From contig CAZERF010000002.1 of the NCBI GenBank assembly GCA_964515375.1, positions 93,164 through 157,163 of the forward strand: 64,000 nucleotides of DNA, given 5' to 3'. The notes below the pieces were generated by a model. It did not search any database. It had not been told where the DNA came from and saw only the letters and a program-made list of their open reading frames with translations. How positions within the stretch are numbered: the first letter of the stretch is position 1; each line of letters begins with the position of its first letter. The translations under genes were made by a program, and so were the position numbers. This document shows, piece after piece, positions 1 through 29,815 of this stretch. Source of the DNA: an uncultured Candidatus Saccharibacteria bacterium. GTDB lineage: Bacteria; Patescibacteriota; Minisyncoccia; Phycocordibacterales; UBA6899.

Positions 1-1701
1 GTCTGTGCCCGAACGCGCTGTTCCGTTGGCTGTTGCATAATCTACTGTTGTACTTTTCGAGAGGTCGCCACTGCGTCGCACGGTGAGTGTGATGGAGGTA
101 CTTTCTTCTTTTGTTGTGTAGCTTGATGTGGCAAAAGAATATGCTGGAGCCGTAATGTTTGATTCGCTGAGACATTGCCCCTCACGGAGAAGTATTGCTC
201 CAGGGTGAAATATACTGTTTCCTTCGTCAAGATAGAGACCCCCCGTATAGTCGCCGTTAAACTTGATATTTAAATAGTAAATATCACGCGAAACATCAAT
301 GACACAACGAAGCGCTCCTGTCCCTATTGAAATGGTCGGATTTATTGTTCCTGAGGTTCCACAGCGTGGTAGATCGGGATTCATATCCCCCGGCGTTGGT
401 GTTAAGGTCATCTTGACACCCGCTCCGCCTATCGCTCCTCCGGTGAGACTCTTGAGGTTAAAGCCCCCCGCGTTTGTACTTAGTGTTTTTGAGTGATCCA
501 CAAAGTAGCGAATACTTAAGATGTGCCCCGGAGTATTCTTAATGCTCACCGTTTTTCCTTCAAAAGCTCCATTATAGACTCCAGAAACAACACACGGTTC
601 ATTGGTTGAATCGACTGACCCTCCATTTACACACCCGCTTACCGCTGTCCATGTTGCCGGTCTCCCATTGACCGTACTCTGGTCGACGACATAGATGGGC
701 GTGATCGCGTTGATGTCCGGACTCCATAATCCGAAACCTGGGTCACGCAGAAGGCAGGATTCTGATGCCCCCGCATTTCCATTTTGACTGTCGATCGTTC
801 GTGTCGCAAGTGTTGTTCCTTCCGTTGCTGTCCAGAAATTAAACGCACATGATGTTAAATCGGAACAGATTGTGTTAGTTGTTCCTTTCTCGATATTTGC
901 AATATTGATGTAGTAGCGAGTGTTGGGTTTGAGGATACAATATTCATCAGGATCTGATGTGTTGTCCATTGAGTATTTGATCACACTTGCCCCGTTGTTT
1001 TGCGCCACACAGGCTGGAGGTTTGGCAAATGCATTTGTGTCACCGGCGATCTCTGAAAGAATGATGAGTTTGCCGAGAGCTGTTGTGTCAGCAATGCTTG
1101 CATTGATAATGCCCTTGAATGCTCCTGAACCGGGAGAAGAGAAGCCAAAAGCGGTAACTTGCGTGGGGTCAGAAGAGAATGATTCCGGCGCTATTTGTTG
1201 GGTGGGAAATTCTGTCATAACACAACCCAACGTGTCTGATGCTGTGCATGAGAATCCGTCGTTCTTTTGATTTGGGACAAAGGTTGTGTTTGAGATCATT
1301 GCCTGTGTTGCACTAGGGGATGATGGTGGAGAAATTGCAATTTTTGCTTTATTCCCGACAAGTTGAGGGTTGATCGTGTTGAGAATGACCCATGAACCAA
1401 TAGCTAAAAGGAGTCCAAAAATAGCATTTGTGATACATTGTCGTGCCTCACTTTTTCCTTGCGCTTCGCCGCTTCCCATTAATTTTATCCCACAGATCAC
1501 AAGCATAAGGACCGCCAAGATTCCTGCGATTCCGATTATGGTGACATAAATCCCGTTCAAATATTGAGAAAGAGTTACCTTCCCTGAAAGTGTTCCAATT
1601 GGCGTGATGAGTTCATAGGTCGGGTCGCCTGCAATGGCAAGCATTGGTGGTGTGGCTAATGCGGCGAGAATGGACAGAATGAGAAAAAAAGAGCGGCGCA
1701 T
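1..1701 (-). CDS. Large secreted/membrane-anchored surface protein, partial (C-terminus runs off the window start). The N-terminus has signal peptide + two TM helices in a VirB2/TrbC-pilin-like topology, followed by a long Ser/Thr/Gly/Asn-rich extracellular region.
   Basis: Open minus-strand frame from ATG at 1701 to position 1 with no stop. Absent from the ORF track because it is incomplete. N-term reads MRRSFFLILSILAALATPPMLAIA...GIYVTIIGIAGILAVLMLVICGI...NAIFGLLLAIGSWVILNTI. Sits 25 nt downstream of the ruvA stop. Confidence 0.6.
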   Translation of the reverse strand, partial: MRRSFFLILSILAALATPPMLAIAGDPTYELITPIGTLSGKVTLSQYLNGIYVTIIGIAGILAVLMLVICGIKLMGSGEAQGKSEARQCITNAIFGLLLAIGSWVILNTINPQLVGNKAKIAISPPSSPSATQAMISNTTFVPNQKNDGFSCTASDTLGCVMTEFPTQQIAPESFSSDPTQVTAFGFSSPGSGAFKGIINASIADTTALGKLIILSEIAGDTNAFAKPPACVAQNNGASVIKYSMDNTSDPDEYCILKPNTRYYINIANIEKGTTNTICSDLTSCAFNFWTATEGTTLATRTIDSQNGNAGASESCLLRDPGFGLWSPDINAITPIYVVDQSTVNGRPATWTAVSGCVNGGSVDSTNEPCVVSGVYNGAFEGKTVSIKNTPGHILSIRYFVDHSKTLSTNAGGFNLKSLTGGAIGGAGVKMTLTPTPGDMNPDLPRCGTSGTINPTISIGTGALRCVIDVSRDIYYLNIKFNGDYTGGLYLDEGNSIFHPGAILLREGQCLSESNITAPAYSFATSSYTTKEESTSITLTVRRSGDLSKSTTVDYATANGTARSGTD

Positions 1702-4306: not shown

Positions 4307-4441
4307 GTTGGGAAAATGCAAATTTGGAGAAGACGGCTCGCGGCGCGAGACGCGCCGCTCGCACAGAATTTGAAAGGGCTTTTTTGGCGAAAAGGAAAAG
4401 GATTTATCAAGAAGGGCAAAAGAAATTTTTTCATAAATGCG

Positions 4442-5599
4442 ATGCGAGTTACTAAAAAGAAATTTTTCATAAGTTTAGGAATTTTATTCCTACTTCTTTT
4501 AATCATTGGTTCTAAAGATAAATCGGAAAAATCGGTAATTCCAGAAAACACTGGAAATACTACCAAGGTTGAAGCAACAGCCAGGAAATTTTACATGGGT
4601 TTTACACCGTGGCCACCAGATTTTTCTGATCAAGCAGTTAAAGGTTCGTATAAATTTATTGATGATCATGCTGATATTATTGCTCATCATCTAGACAATG
4701 GTATACCTTGGCAAGAAAGTCTTGAAGGAAAAGAATTTTCTAAACATCTTCGTGACCAATGGGCGCTAAGAAAATCCAATACCACAAATGATCATAAGGT
4801 TTATCTTGCTATTACTCCCATTAATACCGATAGGAATGGTTTAGCTCCATACTGGGGAGAAACTGATAATATTCCCTTATCTGAACCTTGGAAATCATAT
4901 GGCTTCAATGATGAAAGAGTCAAAAAAGCTTATCTTAACTATGCAATTCGAGCGATAGATTATTTCAAACCGGACTATATTGCCACTGGTATCGAATCGA
5001 ACATTTTAATTTCCAAGGCTCTGAGTAAATGGAATGATTATTTGGAATTAAATGAATATATCTACAAAGAACTAAAGAAAAAATATCCTAAACTATTAAT
5101 TTTTAATACGATCCAATACGAACATTTAAGAGCAATCGAGAATGATGCAAAACCAAACAGACATTTACAAATTCCTGAAGTAAAAAAGTTAATGCAGAAT
5201 AGCGATCTATTTGCTATAAGCACTTATCACTTTGGAACCGCTCATAATCCAGCAAATTCAAATTACTTTGGGCCTGCTCTATCATTCGGCAAACCTTTAG
5301 CTGTAGGAGAAATGGGTGCGATGTCGAAAGATATAACTATCTTTGGCAACAAAATTCATGCTAACGAGCAAGACCAATCAGAATTTATTAATTTCATATT
5401 AAGTGAAGCTAATAAAAATAATTTTCTTTTCGTCATAAATTTCGTGAATATTGATTATGATAAATTGCTCGGAAAACTTCCAAACGAAGTCAAGGAAGTT
5501 GCAAAAGCTTGGGTTAATACCGGATTAGTCCGCTCGGACTATTCTCCTAAACCAGCTCTTTCGGTGTGGGACGCCTATTATCATCTTCCACGTCGTTAA
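4442..5599 (+). CDS. Secreted hypothetical protein, possibly a TIM-barrel glycoside-hydrolase-like enzyme. The gene is AT-rich.
   Basis: Signal peptide MRVTKKKFFISLGILFLLLLIIGS. GC content is far below that of the flanks. Lies immediately downstream of tRNA-Ser. The start was moved to the ATG at 4442. Confidence 0.55.
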   Translation: MRVTKKKFFISLGILFLLLLIIGSKDKSEKSVIPENTGNTTKVEATARKFYMGFTPWPPDFSDQAVKGSYKFIDDHADIIAHHLDNGIPWQESLEGKEFSKHLRDQWALRKSNTTNDHKVYLAITPINTDRNGLAPYWGETDNIPLSEPWKSYGFNDERVKKAYLNYAIRAIDYFKPDYIATGIESNILISKALSKWNDYLELNEYIYKELKKKYPKLLIFNTIQYEHLRAIENDAKPNRHLQIPEVKKLMQNSDLFAISTYHFGTAHNPANSNYFGPALSFGKPLAVGEMGAMSKDITIFGNKIHANEQDQSEFINFILSEANKNNFLFVINFVNIDYDKLLGKLPNEVKEVAKAWVNTGLVRSDYSPKPALSVWDAYYHLPRR

Positions 5600-14806: not shown

Positions 14807-15244
14807 ATGGAAGGCACACGTTTTACATTTTCAAAATTCCGTCTGCATTCCTCGTTCCGACTCTTTGACGGAACGAGTTCCGGTGCTCGTTCAGTGTGGC
14901 ACATGTATCTCATTCTCCTTGTCGCGGGAATGGTCGGGGTCGGCGTCTTTGCCTACCTCACGTACCTCTGGGCGATAACAGATGACTCTTTTGTCCCTCC
15001 CTCGTCTCCCTCTCGTGACACGCAGACTATCGCTGAGTTGCGTTCGGTTGTCGAGCTTTATGAGGATCGTGCACGAGAACATGCGGAGCTTCGCGCAAAG
15101 GCGCCCGCCGCACCACTCTATCTTCAGGGTACTGGTGCTTCTGTTCTCCCTGTTTCGGCGGGAGAGACGGCGCTCCCTGCTGAAGTTCCTCTCGTGGAGA
15201 CCTCAACAACAACAGGAACTACAACTTCTTCCGCTCGGGAATAG
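14807..15244 (+). CDS. Hypothetical membrane protein, possibly a pilus-assembly accessory component
   Basis: Translationally coupled to the pilO-like gene. One TM helix and a Thr-rich tail. A terminator follows. Confidence 0.45.
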   Translation: MEGTRFTFSKFRLHSSFRLFDGTSSGARSVWHMYLILLVAGMVGVGVFAYLTYLWAITDDSFVPPSSPSRDTQTIAELRSVVELYEDRAREHAELRAKAPAAPLYLQGTGASVLPVSAGETALPAEVPLVETSTTTGTTTSSARE

Positions 15245-15275
15245 TGAACTTTTGAACCTTCAATGTTTAACGTCA

Positions 15276-15299
15276 AAACCGCCCCTGGGCGGTTTTTTT
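15276..15299 (+). terminator. Intrinsic terminator after the pil cluster
   Basis: aaaaccgcccctgggcggttttttt. Confidence 0.7.
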
Positions 15300-15303
15300 G
15301 TAG

Positions 15304-15357
15304 TGGGCGATAGAGGACTCGAACCTCTGACCTTCGCAGTGTAAATGCGTTGCTCTA
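15304..15357 (-). repeat. Partial duplicate of tRNA-Val covering tRNA positions ~22-76 (the 3' 54 nt)
   Basis: Exact 54-nt identity with 15489-15542. Lies on the same strand 185 bp away from the complete gene. Confidence 0.8.
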
Positions 15358-15488
15358 TTCGAGATCGGCTTCGGAGTGAAACGAAGAAGGCGAGTGGTGA
15401 CCGGCGTCCGCGGCGGCGGACACCTTGTCGAAAAAGCCGGCCCGGTGCCGAGGCCTTGCGAGGACCGGCTTACCAACTGAGCTTGATG

Positions 15489-15561
15489 TGGGCGATAGAG
15501 GACTCGAACCTCTGACCTTCGCAGTGTAAATGCGTTGCTCTACCAACTGAGCTAATCGCCC
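15489..15561 (-). tRNA. tRNA-Val (anticodon TAC)
   Basis: Reverse complement reads GGGCGATTAGCTCAGTTGGTAGAGCAACGCATTTACACTGCGAAGGTCAGAGGTTCGAGTCCTCTATCGCCCA, a canonical cloverleaf. Confidence 0.9.
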
Positions 15562-15680: not shown

Positions 15681-15752
15681 TGCCCCCGCCAAGAATCGAA
15701 CTTGGATCCGCTGCTTAGAAGGCAGCTGTTCTATCCATTGAACTACGGGGAC
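15681..15752 (-). tRNA. tRNA-Arg (anticodon TCT)
   Basis: Acceptor GTCCCCG/CGGGGGC; D-arm GTTC-AATGGATA-GAAC; anticodon loop CTTCTAA; T-arm with TTCGATTC loop. Confidence 0.8.
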
Positions 15753-16063
15753 GATGACCCTCCGGCGTGCGAGAGACACTGCACAGCTTACCGCACTTTA
15801 TGGCGAAAAAAAAGTATGCTCACCGAGTAATGGTGAGCATGATGTTGGATGCGGCGTGACCCTGCCTTGGGCCCGGTGACGTTTCTGGTGCACCTCCCCT
15901 CCTTTGAAAGGGGGCTAAAAGCTGCTGCTCCGCCGCAATCATCACGCGCATATTCATGTGTGCGACGATCGCGGAAGAGCACTCATGCTTATACTTTTAT
16001 TATACTCCTCTTTTAATTTTTTGTCAATATGTTTCCGCAGTCTCCATCTTATACAATAGTGCA

Positions 16064-18411: not shown

Positions 18412-18498
18412 GTCCGGGTGGCGAAATTGGTAGACGCACTACCTTGAGGTGGTAGCGCCCGTTAGGGCATGGAGGTTCAAGTCCTCTCCCGGACACCA
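18412..18498 (+). tRNA. tRNA-Leu (anticodon GAG)
   Basis: Acceptor GTCCGGG/CCCGGAC; anticodon loop TTGAGGT; long variable arm; T-arm GGAGG-TTCAAGT-CCTCT; CCA is encoded. A bidirectional terminator follows. Confidence 0.85.
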
Positions 18499-18640
18499 TA
18501 CAAAAAAAAGCGTCTTTGACGCTTTTTTTTGTATGGTGTCTGGAGCAAGACAACTGCTTGTCTTGCGCGAGAGGACTTGAAGACCCCGCCGTTGTTTCGG
18601 CTTTGCGAAACCGCCGGGGTGTACAGCGTCGGTAAGACGA

Positions 18641-18659
18641 AAGTCCTCTCCCGGACACC
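18641..18659 (+). repeat. 19-nt direct repeat of the tRNA-Leu(GAG) 3' end (att-core-like scar)
   Basis: aagtcctctcccggacacc is identical to 18479-18497. An inverted T-arm fragment cgagaggacttgaa lies at 18568-18581. Confidence 0.7.
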
Positions 18660-18755
18660 TATTGGCTTTTGTGAGCAATGCGAAGCAAAAGACTTAGTGA
18701 CTTGTGACCAAGTCCGTGGCACACAAAGACACCACGGTGAAGCGATAGTTTTGCC

Positions 18756-20174: not shown

Positions 20175-20271
20175 ACGCGGGAATCCCTCCCGTGGAGGGA
20201 CTCTCCTCACTAAGGAAAAAGCACAGGCCATTGCGACCTGTGCTTTTCTTTTGCCCTCATTCGAGGACTCA

Positions 20272-20408
20272 TGGTGGGCACGGGGAGACTTGAACATTAC
20301 ATGTTCCGTACAGGACCGCGCGTCGTACTCGTCTTCAGAAAGACTCCGTGCGACATGCTCGTCCTTTCAAGTTCTCCCACACAGGCAAGCAGTTGCCTGT
20401 TCGTGCCC
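20272..20408 (-). pseudogene. tRNA-like pseudo-element of 137 nt: an intact tRNA-Leu acceptor 5' strand and D-arm, ~80 nt of unrelated sequence, then a T-loop/acceptor 3' end with CCA
   Basis: Reverse complement begins GGGCACGAACAGGCAACTGCTTGCCTG and ends GTTCAAGTCTCCCCGTGCCCACCA. It cannot be folded as a cloverleaf. Shares its ends with the adjacent tRNA-Leu(CAG). Confidence 0.6.
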
Positions 20409-20423
20409 TCATTCGAGGACTCA

Positions 20424-20508
20424 TGGTGGGCACGGGGAGACTTGAACTCCCAAGGGTTTCCCCATACGCTTCTGAGACGTACGCGTATACCAGTTCCGCC
20501 ACGTGCCC
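20424..20508 (-). tRNA. tRNA-Leu (anticodon CAG)
   Basis: Reverse complement reads GGGCACGTGGCGGAACTGGTATACGCGTACGTCTCAGAAGCGTATGGGGAAACCCTTGGGAGTTCAAGTCTCCCCGTGCCCACCA. Acceptor, anticodon arm (loop CTCAGAA), long variable arm and T-arm all pair. Confidence 0.8.
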
Positions 20509-27722: not shown

Positions 27723-28703
27723 ATGAATATCGAGGAAAGAAAAATTCTCAAAGCACTCACTGATGATAGGAGGGGGTTACTGTCCCCAGCAGATTTCGTA
27801 AACGGAATTGCGCAACACGATCGGCGGGCAGTAGAAAACCTTGTCACGGGTGGCTATGTCGAGGAGGTACCACAAGATGTTAATGGAGGTCATCGGGGAA
27901 CATATTCTATAAATTTTTATAGAGCAACAGAAAAGGGTCGAAATGTCTTTTCTCCATGGAGACAAAAAGTTTGGTTTAATCTTAAGACGGAAACCTCACT
28001 TTGGGTAGGAATCTCCTCGATCATGATTGGAGTTCTTTCAATACTTATTTCTAGCGCCGTGGCTTTTGGTGTTCCTTGGTATCAAAATGTATCAAATGAA
28101 CAAAAAGAAATTGAGGCAATTTATAAAAATCTCATTACGAATGAGGATATTCTCATATCGAACTCAAATAATGCCAGATTTCTTTTAACTGCAACAAGTG
28201 TCACTGCATTGCCGGAGTCATACCTGGAAGATGAGATCAAAGGTGATATTGGAAAAATACTTCAGGATAAGTTTGGTTTAATTCAATACAGATTTTTCGT
28301 TTATTACTTGCAGCAGATTGAACTTTTCAACTTGGAAATAGAAGAAATGAGGAACGCACTCGTTGTCGGGGGTTCAACATCAACAGCATATCTAAGTGCC
28401 CAAAAGGCGTATCTTTCAACTGTAGACGAAATAAGCAAGGAGGGGATGGATGCAAGGTTTAGTCACATAAGAGATGTTGAATGCCTTACACATTTATTTG
28501 AGCGCAATTTTGAGTATTTATCTATTGATCCGCGCGGCAAAATAGAAAAATGTTCAAATGAATCCCTTAATCGAATTTATTATAATTTTGGCTTTCTCGA
28601 GGCGGCAACACCAAGGTGGATGCTACCAGCATACAGAGACGCGCTAAATGAAAGAAGGGCGGGTTTCGGTGACACAATAATTAACATCGCCGGAGGTTAT
28701 TAG
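27723..28703 (+). CDS. Hypothetical membrane protein with an N-terminal winged-helix-like domain. AT-rich island cargo.
   Basis: ILKALTDDRRGLLSPADFVNGIAQHDRRAVENLVTGGYVEEV (wHTH-like), then the TM helix LWVGISSIMIGVLSILISSAVAFGV, then a ~200-aa C-terminal domain. Confidence 0.55.
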   Translation: MNIEERKILKALTDDRRGLLSPADFVNGIAQHDRRAVENLVTGGYVEEVPQDVNGGHRGTYSINFYRATEKGRNVFSPWRQKVWFNLKTETSLWVGISSIMIGVLSILISSAVAFGVPWYQNVSNEQKEIEAIYKNLITNEDILISNSNNARFLLTATSVTALPESYLEDEIKGDIGKILQDKFGLIQYRFFVYYLQQIELFNLEIEEMRNALVVGGSTSTAYLSAQKAYLSTVDEISKEGMDARFSHIRDVECLTHLFERNFEYLSIDPRGKIEKCSNESLNRIYYNFGFLEAATPRWMLPAYRDALNERRAGFGDTIINIAGGY

Positions 28704-28711
28704 CTACTTTC

Positions 28712-29815
28712 ATGCCTCGCTTACATAAAGTAATTTCATGGCCAAGACGCAAGTTCATTGCTTTCGTCCTCCGAAAAAGAATCGGAAAAAATAAGTGGTC
28801 TGCTCACTTGATATTTGGCTTGCTCAGCATTTTAGATTTACTTGAATTTTTGTATATAAATACACAGGACACGGGAAATTACGACCACTATATTCCAAAA
28901 TTTCTTCTTCGCCGATTTCGAATTTCCGAAAAAGGCGCACACAGTAATTCACTGTTTACCTACACACTTAAATCAAAACTTGTAGAAAGGAAAAGCATCG
29001 ACGACGTTGCGGGGGAAATTGATTTTGACGTCTCAAAAGCTAGCGGCATTCCAAGTGACTTTGTAAACAAAAAAATATTTGCTGAATTTCTTGAGCCGAT
29101 AGCATCAAGAATAATAAAGCATATAAACACTGGAAATAATGATTTAACATATCTTGAGGCTAACACCCTTGCTGTTTATATGGGCCATCAAATCACCCGA
29201 GTGCCAGCATTCAGATCGTTGCTTCTAAAAATTTTCTCGATAGGAATAAGTGATGGGCGGATACTCTATTCTGAATTTGGAGATAAGAAAGCACTCCGCG
29301 AAAAAATCGCCTTCAATTCTATTCTAATTACTTATGATCAGATTTTACGCACCAAACCACCCATTAAAGTCGATGGAGGTAAGCCGCAAGCGATAATGAT
29401 TTCTCTGCTAATTGCGCCTATTATTTCGGAAAAAATATACCGAAATAATAGTATGCATGTTATCGATATTCCTCAGGATAGTGGCAAGGAGTTTGTCATT
29501 TCAGACAACCCAGTAGTATTTATTGATTTCGAAAGAGCGACAGTTCTTCCGTTTGTTCCTTGGTGGGAAATAGGAACCCGCGATTTTTTAATAGCAATGC
29601 CAGTCTCAAGGAACAAGGCAATCATATATAGCAGAGTTAGTAGAAAACCGACAGAAACCGAACAGAACTCAATTGCCGAATTAATAAACTTTGCGCAATA
29701 TGCCTGTTCGAGAAAAGAGGTCTATTCTAACAACGAGAAAACGATATTGCTCCACCTAAATAAATACAAAACAGAGCTCGAAAAATTTCGGTTAATGTTT
29801 AGTTCTGAAGACTGA
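28712..29815 (+). CDS. DUF4238-like protein (candidate single-gene anti-phage / abortive-infection-type protein)
   Basis: The N-terminal motif NYDHYIPKFLLRRF resembles the DUF4238 HYxPQFYLRxF signature. AT-rich. Lies within the island. Confidence 0.5.
   Translation: MPRLHKVISWPRRKFIAFVLRKRIGKNKWSAHLIFGLLSILDLLEFLYINTQDTGNYDHYIPKFLLRRFRISEKGAHSNSLFTYTLKSKLVERKSIDDVAGEIDFDVSKASGIPSDFVNKKIFAEFLEPIASRIIKHINTGNNDLTYLEANTLAVYMGHQITRVPAFRSLLLKIFSIGISDGRILYSEFGDKKALREKIAFNSILITYDQILRTKPPIKVDGGKPQAIMISLLIAPIISEKIYRNNSMHVIDIPQDSGKEFVISDNPVVFIDFERATVLPFVPWWEIGTRDFLIAMPVSRNKAIIYSRVSRKPTETEQNSIAELINFAQYACSRKEVYSNNEKTILLHLNKYKTELEKFRLMFSSED

Follow-up and report, generated by a model that had tools for sequence, protein, structure and literature searches.

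The stretch of DNA analysed here (64,000 nt; positions 93,164 to 157,163 of contig CAZERF010000002.1, assembly GCA_964515375.1; hereafter the window) contains, on its minus strand, an intact tRNA-Val gene that is followed in the same orientation by a partial second copy of itself, and this second copy is interrupted in its D-loop by a folded insert of 113 nt, designated module M. The locus lies between tRNA-Arg(TCT) and a convergent pil operon, and its neighbours include pilM/N/O-like genes and genes for a tRNA-binding protein, RuvX, acylphosphatase, UppS, RluD and L19. The best-named homologues of the window UppS are from Candidatus Lloydbacteria (Parcubacteria, within the candidate phyla radiation, CPR). 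In the following list and throughout, coordinates are positions in the window and nucleotides of tRNA-Val are numbered 1-73; L028 is a contig of another species, and R1 is a covariance model built from four copies of M.

15752..15681, minus strand: tRNA-Arg(TCT), 5' of tRNA-Val and in the same orientation (ARAGORN, Rfam).
15561..15489, minus strand: intact tRNA-Val(TAC), 73 nt, CCA not encoded (ARAGORN; Rfam RF00005, 72.1 bits).
15488..15484, minus strand: spacer x, CATCA, 5 nt, between the intact tRNA-Val and the D-arm fragment; identical in L028 by alignment.
15483..15471, minus strand: fragment a, AGCTCAGTTGGTA, 13 nt, an exact copy of tRNA-Val positions 9-21 that ends at the D-loop TA (repeat search).
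15470..15358, minus strand: module M, a conserved structured insert of 113 nt between two TA dinucleotides (covariance model R1; no Rfam family).
15472..15355, minus strand: covariance-model match to M, from TA to TAG (R1).
15357..15304, minus strand: fragment b, TAGAGC...ATCGCCCA, an exact 54-nt copy of tRNA-Val positions 20-73, joined to the native downstream flank (repeat search).
15275..15299, both strands: bidirectional terminator-like hairpin AAAAAAACCGCCCAGGGGCGGTTTT, between fragment b and the pil operon (inverted repeat and terminator scan).
14807-15244, plus strand: last open reading frame (ORF) of the convergent pilM/N/O-like operon (ORF list).

The 54-nt string TAGAGC...ATCGCCCA is present exactly twice (15542..15489 and 15357..15304; none expected from shuffles), and the repeat search extends this direct repeat to 60 nt at 97% identity. 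Similarly, the 13-nt AGCTCAGTTGGTA is found within tRNA-Val at 15553..15541 and again at 15483..15471. The interval between the intact gene and fragment b is 131 nt long and consists of CATCA, the 13-nt D-arm copy and M, with no plausible gene in it; fragment b itself is a partial tRNA match in Rfam (23.6 bits, below threshold). A first-pass annotation of this DNA had described the same-strand copy of the 3' 54 nt of tRNA-Val and three hairpins in the insert, and both are confirmed by the repeat search and by folding, respectively. The smaller pieces that it reported are also present, but the spacer is 5 nt rather than 7 nt, the D-arm piece is 13 nt (positions 9-21) rather than 12 nt (positions 10-21), and the insert, given as about 110 nt, measures 113 nt. 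Two k-mer-based contigs (L002 and L003) break within the repeat. An independent Joint Genome Institute (JGI) contig, L001, is identical base for base across the entire tRNA-Val/x/a/M/b structure and L028 has the same architecture in another species, and therefore the locus is not an assembly artefact.

Orthologous tRNA-Val loci were gathered from several lineages through exact-protein look-ups, and a gapped pattern that combines two invariant blocks of M (CACCACTCGCCTTCT + TCTCGAATAG) retrieved two more metagenome contigs, L022 and L023. Full-length homologues of M, as detected with R1, were found only in Lloydbacteria-like metagenome contigs, with scores of 114 bits in the window, 111 in L028, 125 in L015/L018, 120 in L022, and 141 in L023. 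L028, whose UppS is 80% identical to that of the window, has tRNA-Val, CATCA, the 13-nt D-arm copy, M and positions 20-72, in the same x-a-M-b order. In L015/L018, whose PilO is 45% identical to that of the window, a 115-121-nt homologue of M lies beside the same pil-operon terminator in a decayed setting, and the 5' flank of M in L015 is not a D-arm. In L022 and L023, M lies in a pseudo-copy of tRNA-Lys(TTT), at the same D-loop site (...CAGCTGGTA / M / TAGAGCAG...), and an intact tRNA-Lys(TTT) follows shortly downstream. In every intact tRNA context, M is at the same D-loop TA and an intact gene for the same tRNA is alongside; TA stands on both sides of M in the window, L028, L022, and L023, and thus in two different tRNAs. 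Additionally, in L023 (about 388..323, minus strand) M is separated from the D-loop TA by an unrelated 66-nt segment (TGCAGATACC...GCCAAACG), so that the order is TA-66 nt-TA-M-TA; this suggests repeated insertion at one dinucleotide. What had been described as an anonymous structured segment is therefore structured, but it is also a conserved module that recurs at the D-loop site of tRNA-Val and tRNA-Lys. Two subfamilies are recognised: alpha (window, L028, and the first hairpin, P1, of L006) and beta (L015/L018, L022, and L023).

The interrupted copy is unable to make a tRNA. In the window and L028 it is missing positions 1-8 and consequently has no acceptor stem, the interrupted tRNA-Lys copy of L022 ends at about position 53 (without 54-73), and that of L023 keeps only positions 1-21 and 20-27 (without 28-73); no complete M-containing tRNA was found at any locus collected. 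Homology between the window and L028 stops exactly at the 3' end of fragment b, and M-b abuts the pil-operon terminator in both the window and L015. At the tRNA-Lys locus, comparison was made with L038, which together with L039-L041 has a clean tRNA-Lys locus orthologous to that of L022. The 100 nt upstream of the M-bearing copy in L022 align with the DNA upstream of the native tRNA-Lys in L038, TATAA box included, with a score of 23 (shuffles: mean 9.5, maximum 18), as against 8 for the flank of the intact L022 copy. As judged from these alignments, the interrupted copy retains the native flank on its outer side, which is downstream for Val and upstream for Lys.

The fold of the 118-nt module is more stable than that of shuffled sequences (z = -2.6), and has the following parts in the window.

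15470..15435, minus strand: P1, a Y-shaped terminator-like hairpin, followed by T5 at 15434..15430 (folding, terminator scan, covariation).
15424..15403, minus strand: P2, a GC-rich hairpin, GGTGTCCGC-CGCC-GCGGACGCC (folding, alignment).
15399..15385, minus strand: an invariant 15-nt block, CACCACTCGCCTTCT, predicted to be partly single-stranded (identical in five of five distinct M copies).
15386..15369, minus strand: P3, CTTCG...CGAAG (folding).
15368..15358, minus strand: right end of M, CCGATCTCGAA (retained in L006).

P1 together with T5 was picked up by the terminator scan. Pairing is possible between the TTCGA that comes after P1 and a TCGAA near the right end of M, giving a predicted closing helix, UUCGA/UCGAA. 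All five distinct M copies have a common fold that comprises P1, U5, the closing helix, P2, the invariant 15-mer, and P3 (CUUC...GAAG), with ATCGGC-GCC-GCCGAT formed at the P2 location in the M-beta copies. None of 500 shuffles and no slid register reaches the percentage paired or the covariation score of the whole structure. In the model-fitted alignment, helix 1 (P1) is 100% paired and four of its 10 pairs are changed on both sides; its outer stem covaries among homologues, its inner hairpin has a different sequence in every M-beta copy and yet forms, and the bulge on its 3' side, A(C/U)C(A/G)GG, is conserved. Helices 2 and 4 (the closing helix and P3) are invariant in the alignment, so covariation is uninformative there, and convincing covariation is restricted to the terminator-like hairpin P1. 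Searches of Rfam 15 with M, at gathering cut-offs and at E<=10, returned tRNAs and noise only, and the 113-nt M core is a previously undescribed conserved fold.

Two candidate functions of parts of M were considered and rejected. The complement of the invariant block, AGAAGGCGAGTGGTG, resembles a Shine-Dalgarno site with a GTG start, and the frame of a small opposite-strand peptide (21 to 30 or more codons) is kept; however, such a peptide is judged unlikely because its stop and sequence vary and its 3' half falls in the covarying hairpin. Similarly, pairing of the P1 bulge (ACCAG/ACCGG) with the D-loop (CTGGT/CCGGT) as a guide would involve 5 nt only and is inconsistent among copies. Separately, a half-copy of M, with a P1-like hairpin and TTTTTTCGATAAGG, was noted on L031 (167-224, minus strand; model E = 5e-4) between a VTT-domain gene and pilM, with no tRNA near.

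Between the window and L028, the x+a+M segment is 97.7% identical (3 mismatches in 131 nt), in comparison to about 79% for coding DNA, about 65% for the Arg-Val spacer, and about 87% for a tRNA-Leu mini-insert. The tRNA-Val gene and fragment b differ between the two at about nine positions, and yet are identical to each other within each genome. Near-identity of M combined with divergence of the tRNA calls for one of two explanations: either M has spread recently and the repeat was later homogenised by gene conversion, or M is under very strong selection, which would fit a role as a host RNA. The M of L015, from a Val locus, is 92% identical outside P1 to that of L023, from a Lys locus (their inner P1 hairpins are unrelated), and 68% identical to the window M. 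The phylogeny of M therefore does not follow the locus. Alpha and beta copies of M are 65-72% identical, at a host divergence that is similar to that between the window and L028 (UppS 73% and 80%, respectively).

The site varies among strains and lineages. For instance, L006/L007 are about 87% identical to the window in DNA, and have the 20-73 fragment, the right end CCGATCTCGAA, and P1, within which the contig ends, but a low-GC segment of about 1.9 kb, with a membrane-anchored ORF of 557 aa, takes the place of the M core. This cargo ORF has the same orientation as the opposite-strand Shine-Dalgarno-like site and GTG (AGAAGGCGAGTGGTG). The anticodon stem of the L006 fragment is TTCGA/TCGAA, fully compensated in comparison to ACGCA/TGCGA in the window, and TTCGA/TCGAA is also found in both tRNA-Val and the fragment of L028. 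L014/L017 and L015/L018 have essentially identical flanks but different alleles, with M intact in L015/L018 and degenerate and shortened in L014/L017. In L014 and L017 a series of progressively decayed tRNA-Val 3' ends lies downstream of the gene, and in L016 a 330-aa cargo ORF is joined within a decayed T-loop. In L031 a 24-nt repeat that runs from the T-loop to the end lies about 125 nt past tRNA-Val, other small inserts with T-loop-type repeats are present in L031, L014, and L033, and in L030 the site is without tRNA-Val. Orthologues with a single clean tRNA-Val and unrelated downstream sequence, which the first-pass annotation had named as the finding that would count against its proposals, thus exist in L033, L031, and L014, but L028 and L015 are not of this kind. 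Since clean or other loci occur in some relatives and M in others, the feature is lineage-variable, as is expected for mobile DNA.

The locus is interpreted, with moderate confidence, as the scar or footprint left by a very small element, mobile or integrative, whose targets are the tRNA genes of Candidatus Lloydbacteria-like bacteria; the element would be akin to a cis-mobilizable element (CIME) and use a D-loop sublocation. In such a case the intact tRNA-Val would be the working gene, and fragment b with its native downstream flank would be the displaced original 3' part of the tRNA-Val gene, its identity to the working gene being due to recency or to gene conversion. The 131 nt in between (CATCA, the 13-nt D-arm copy, and M) would be element-borne DNA, with M as the element-specific conserved module. 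P1 with T5 most likely terminates the tRNA-Arg/tRNA-Val transcript. The rest of M is probably cis-acting or regulatory: it may provide arms to which a recombinase binds, or be a cassette that has been emptied but still has, on the opposite strand, a ribosome-binding site and a start codon. In larger relatives of the element, as in L006, cargo may lie between the ends of M.

The arrangement could be generated if donor DNA, with a partial tRNA copy and M at its D-loop TA, recombined once with a chromosomal tRNA gene in a Campbell-type insertion-duplication. A crossover in the 3' arm would give the Val arrangement, in which the intact gene is upstream and the interrupted copy has the native downstream flank. 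The Lys arrangement, in which the interrupted copy has the native promoter upstream and the intact gene is downstream, would instead result from a crossover in the 5' arm. Either homologous recombination or a trans-acting integrase specific for the D-loop might carry out the crossover. This single-crossover model reproduces all of the junctions, including the 13-nt D-arm copy, CATCA, the surplus Lys 20-53 piece, and the native flanks.

Interpretation as an element is based on the 54-60-nt repeat, the recurrence of M, the native flanks, the variable locus, the 97.7% identity, the M phylogeny, and the other tRNA inserts in the window (described below). The first-pass suggestion of a scar of an integrase attachment-site (att) duplication or a disrupted second tRNA-Val gene was in the right direction, as the duplicate is non-functional, has the native downstream flank, and lies at a strain-variable hot-spot; no integrase was found. 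Several results weigh against the element. No integrase, transposase, or other recombinase was found near the window locus, and Pfam detects no recombinase domain in the cargo ORFs of L006, L016, and L028 or in neighbouring ORFs. The loci collected include no pair of filled and empty sites that differ solely in M, L014 and L015 being related by an allele replacement, and neither R1 nor sequence searches detected a second M copy in the 64-kb window. In GTDB representatives, exact or gapped patterns of M gave first 0 and then three chance matches (L025-L027), none of which scores with the model; IMG/VR gave a single chance match within a coding region (L024), and blastn against phage and plasmid collections gave nothing. 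Additionally, the 13-nt D-arm copy is not expected from a plain attL/attR scar, the hairpin covariation and the near-identity between species also fit a selected host RNA, and, as to the donor, a 185-nt circle is implausible as a replicon.

Islands in tRNA genes leave a signature of a regenerated gene and a displaced fragment (Islander, PMC4383910). The locus resembles such islands in having an intact tRNA with a displaced fragment as direct repeat, in that the displaced fragment stays with its native flank, in the upstream-type configuration at tRNA-Lys, and in strain-variable cargo at one site. The sublocations recognised for islands are the anticodon loop, the T-loop, and the 3' end, with the D-loop reported as rare. 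The repeat here starts at position 20, in the D-loop; a D-loop sublocation, together with upstream integration, is reported for some Klebsiella islands in one preprint only (10.1101/2020.11.02.365908). The sister loci (L031, L014, and the window tRNA-Leu genes) use the T-loop sublocation. Unlike known islands, the "island" is here 131 nt long, encodes nothing, and has no integrase in sight nearby, an extra 13-nt D-arm copy is present, and M appears to be inserted into the tRNA copy, not merely between att sites. CIMEs are decayed elements reduced to att sites, with tandem accretion (PMC5704250). As in CIMEs, att-type repeats are kept while recombination and transfer genes are lost, cargo-bearing and empty versions coexist, and the serial decayed tRNA 3' ends of L014/L017 resemble accretion. 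However, known CIMEs are kilobases long and belong to families of integrative and conjugative elements in Firmicutes, in contrast to a putatively mobilised unit of about 130-190 nt with a conserved folded core in CPR bacteria.

Of the competing explanations, the one that survives best, although it is unlikely, is that M is a self-contained miniature insertion element, either resembling miniature inverted-repeat or palindrome-associated transposable elements (MITEs or PATEs) or moved by a recombinase with a 2-bp crossover, that inserts at the TA of GCTCAG(Y)TGG-TA-GAGC in dispensable tRNA pseudo-copies, the tRNA duplication being older and separate. TA flanks M at the same D-loop position in two tRNAs in all intact contexts, the TA-66 nt-TA-M-TA arrangement of L023 is expected from repeated insertion at one site, and near-identical M copies occur in two species. 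In its size of about 115 nt, hairpins, terminator-like end, TA junctions, and non-coding nature, M is also like TA-duplicating Correia-like or IS630-derived MITEs and IS200/IS605-derived PATEs, and the latter likewise have subterminal hairpins without terminal inverted repeats. However, the repeat search found no inverted repeat joining the ends of M, which have only a weak direct similarity (p ~0.015 in one copy, not significant in others), no partner transposase was seen in the window, and M is always inside tRNA-derived arms. M is present once in the 64-kb window, and at two loci (Val and Lys) across related contigs. The TA on both sides of M is also explicable by a 2-bp crossover, or by the D-loop TA with an element that ends in TA. 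Furthermore, insertion of M by itself leaves the native flank of the interrupted copy unexplained, needs a separate explanation for three different partial tRNA duplications, and does not account for the 5' flank of M in L015, which is not a D-arm.

Slightly less likely again is that M is a host-beneficial non-coding RNA or regulatory module, in which a tRNA-operon terminator is combined with a small structured RNA that has a C/U-rich, anti-Shine-Dalgarno-like strand, and that the tRNA fragments are incidental or are processing signals. The conserved structure with compensatory P1 changes and a retained P2 hairpin, the invariant 15-nt block, the identity of x+a+M between species with diverged neutral DNA, and the presence of M at the orthologous pil-operon position in two deep lineages are all consistent with such a role. 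Nevertheless, M is dispensable, being degenerate in L014/L017, deprived of its core in L006, and missing in L031, L033, and L038-L041. It is without its own promoter, the sole convincing covariation is in the terminator-like hairpin while helices 2 and 4 are invariant, and if P1 terminates transcription, then the downstream core is not transcribed from the tRNA promoter. Its conservation is also uneven, with far lower identity between alpha and beta copies than between the window and L028 despite similar host divergence.

It is very improbable that the distal copy is a present or recent functional tRNA-Val with a D-loop intron, or a split or permuted half, from which M is removed as RNA, as was also proposed in the first-pass annotation. 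Interrupted tRNAs include those with bacterial group I introns (in anticodon loops) and archaeal bulge-helix-bulge (BHB) introns (including in D-loops), the split tRNAs of Nanoarchaeum and Caldivirga, and algal permuted tRNAs. As in these, a structured segment interrupts the tRNA at a defined loop position, here exactly between D-loop nucleotides, and the TTCGA/TCGAA pairing could bring the ends of M together, with perfect anticodon and T arms downstream. However, essential parts are missing, namely the acceptor stem in the window and L028 and the 3' parts of the Lys copies in L022 and L023, and no locus has a complete M-containing tRNA. The setting is bacterial, with an intact gene alongside, a terminator-like P1+T5 at the start of the insert, and an invariant closing helix. 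No BHB or group I features were seen in M, Rfam at E<=10 matches no intron or ribozyme family, and no literature on D-loop introns or insertions in CPR tRNAs was found. Least tenable is a plain decayed att scar, a local tandem duplication with a meaningless spacer, or an assembly artefact, since, although direct repeats of tRNA 3' ends are common beside tRNA genes and L002 and L003 break in the repeat, independent assemblies are concordant and the recurrence of M, conserved across species and at two tRNA loci, already refutes it.

The Val locus is not the only one of its kind. Among the seven tRNA genes of the window, three have an insert of 110-190 nt that is delimited by a repeat of the 3' part of the tRNA, and this strengthens the case that the Val locus is one instance of lineage-wide tRNA-linked mini-elements. 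The other two inserts follow tRNA-Leu genes.

18412-18498, plus strand: tRNA-Leu(GAG), with a mini-insert downstream at 18499-18659.
18534-18543, 18544-18566 and 18567-18581, plus strand: split inverted copy of the Leu(GAG) 3' end, made up of TGGTGTCTGG, hairpin AGCAAGACAACTGCTTGTCTTGC, and GCGAGAGGACTTGAA, respectively.
18641-18659, plus strand: Leu(GAG) direct repeat AAGTCCTCTCCCGGACACC, 19 nt, tRNA positions 68-86.
20508..20424, minus strand: tRNA-Leu(CAG), with a mini-insert downstream at 20423..20252, of the same design as at Leu(GAG).
20396..20385, minus strand: Leu(CAG) hairpin GCAACTGCTTGC, flanked by inverted pieces of the tRNA 3' end.
20295..20252, minus strand: Leu(CAG) 44-nt direct repeat, tRNA positions 62-85 with 20 nt of flank, followed by a terminator.

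In the Leu(GAG) insert, which is about 87% conserved in L028 and is not in Rfam, a terminator comes first, the split inverted 3'-end copy second, and the direct 3'-end repeat last, with a long hairpin and then a GTAC..GTAAG motif between the two copies. In both Leu inserts a conserved hairpin (loop CAACTGCTTG) splits the inverted 3'-end copy, and a long hairpin, which is variable, and a GTAC...GTAA motif are also present; a 17-nt copy of Leu(CAG) positions 24-40 also lies 20 nt upstream of that gene. A comparable unit, termed N-type, is found in relatives (L014 7440-7598, L031 2895-3025, L033 1623-1800, L038 4560-4650, and L023 1-73). It consists of the inverted acceptor and T-arm 3' strand of the local tRNA, split by an AGGAAG...CTTCC hairpin, often with an extra direct 3'-end repeat. 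Its arms match the local tRNA every time, after tRNA-Val in L014, L031, and L033 and after tRNA-Lys in L023 and L038-L041. One could speculate, though it is doubtful, that the folded core of M and the N-type inserts are functional and form a new miniature class in CPR bacteria that targets tRNA genes, as a folded single-strand recombination site or as a guide- or bridge-like RNA for a D-arm/T-arm recombinase, or else that M is a new tRNA-linked regulatory RNA; such inserts would then be more than leftovers of the passive decay of ordinary islands.

Some further features of the window and its relatives were noted in passing. Between the acylphosphatase gene and tRNA-Arg(TCT), at about 15808-15992 (minus strand), there is a possible RNA of about 180 nt with no Rfam match; it has a sigma-70-type promoter with 12 of 12 matches (16027..15999) and a strong terminator (15840..15816, with T8), and is about 90% identical in L028, versus about 65% for the nearby Arg-Val spacer. 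Two low-GC segments (4316-5599 and 27723-29815; 38-41% versus about 54%) lie directly 3' of tRNA-Ser(TGA) and tRNA-His(GTG), respectively. They contain ORFs of 427, 326, and 367 aa and are island-like, although neither an integrase nor a tRNA-fragment repeat was detected in them. Finally, a motif resembling repetitive extragenic palindromes (REP), GGGGTCGAGAGyACTTAG ... CTTAGTrACTyGTGACC, is found in intergenic positions around tRNA genes of several Lloydbacteria-like contigs (L014 7780-7850, L030 3900-4170, and the window at about 18687-18710).

For annotation, such loci should be taken neither as split tRNAs nor as second tRNA genes. If the interpretation of the Val locus as the scar of a miniature integrative element is correct, then it would document integration at the D-loop, a sublocation that has rarely been reported, and M would provide a conserved RNA or DNA fold outside Rfam that can be used for modelling and searching. 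Structured units of about 110-190 nt would ride on tRNA genes in the very small genomes of uncultured Parcubacteria, where they would duplicate part of the tRNA gene, mark sites of strain-variable cargo, and spread between species. They would thus give access to the organisation of gene flow in CPR bacteria, a group in which little is known of mobile elements.

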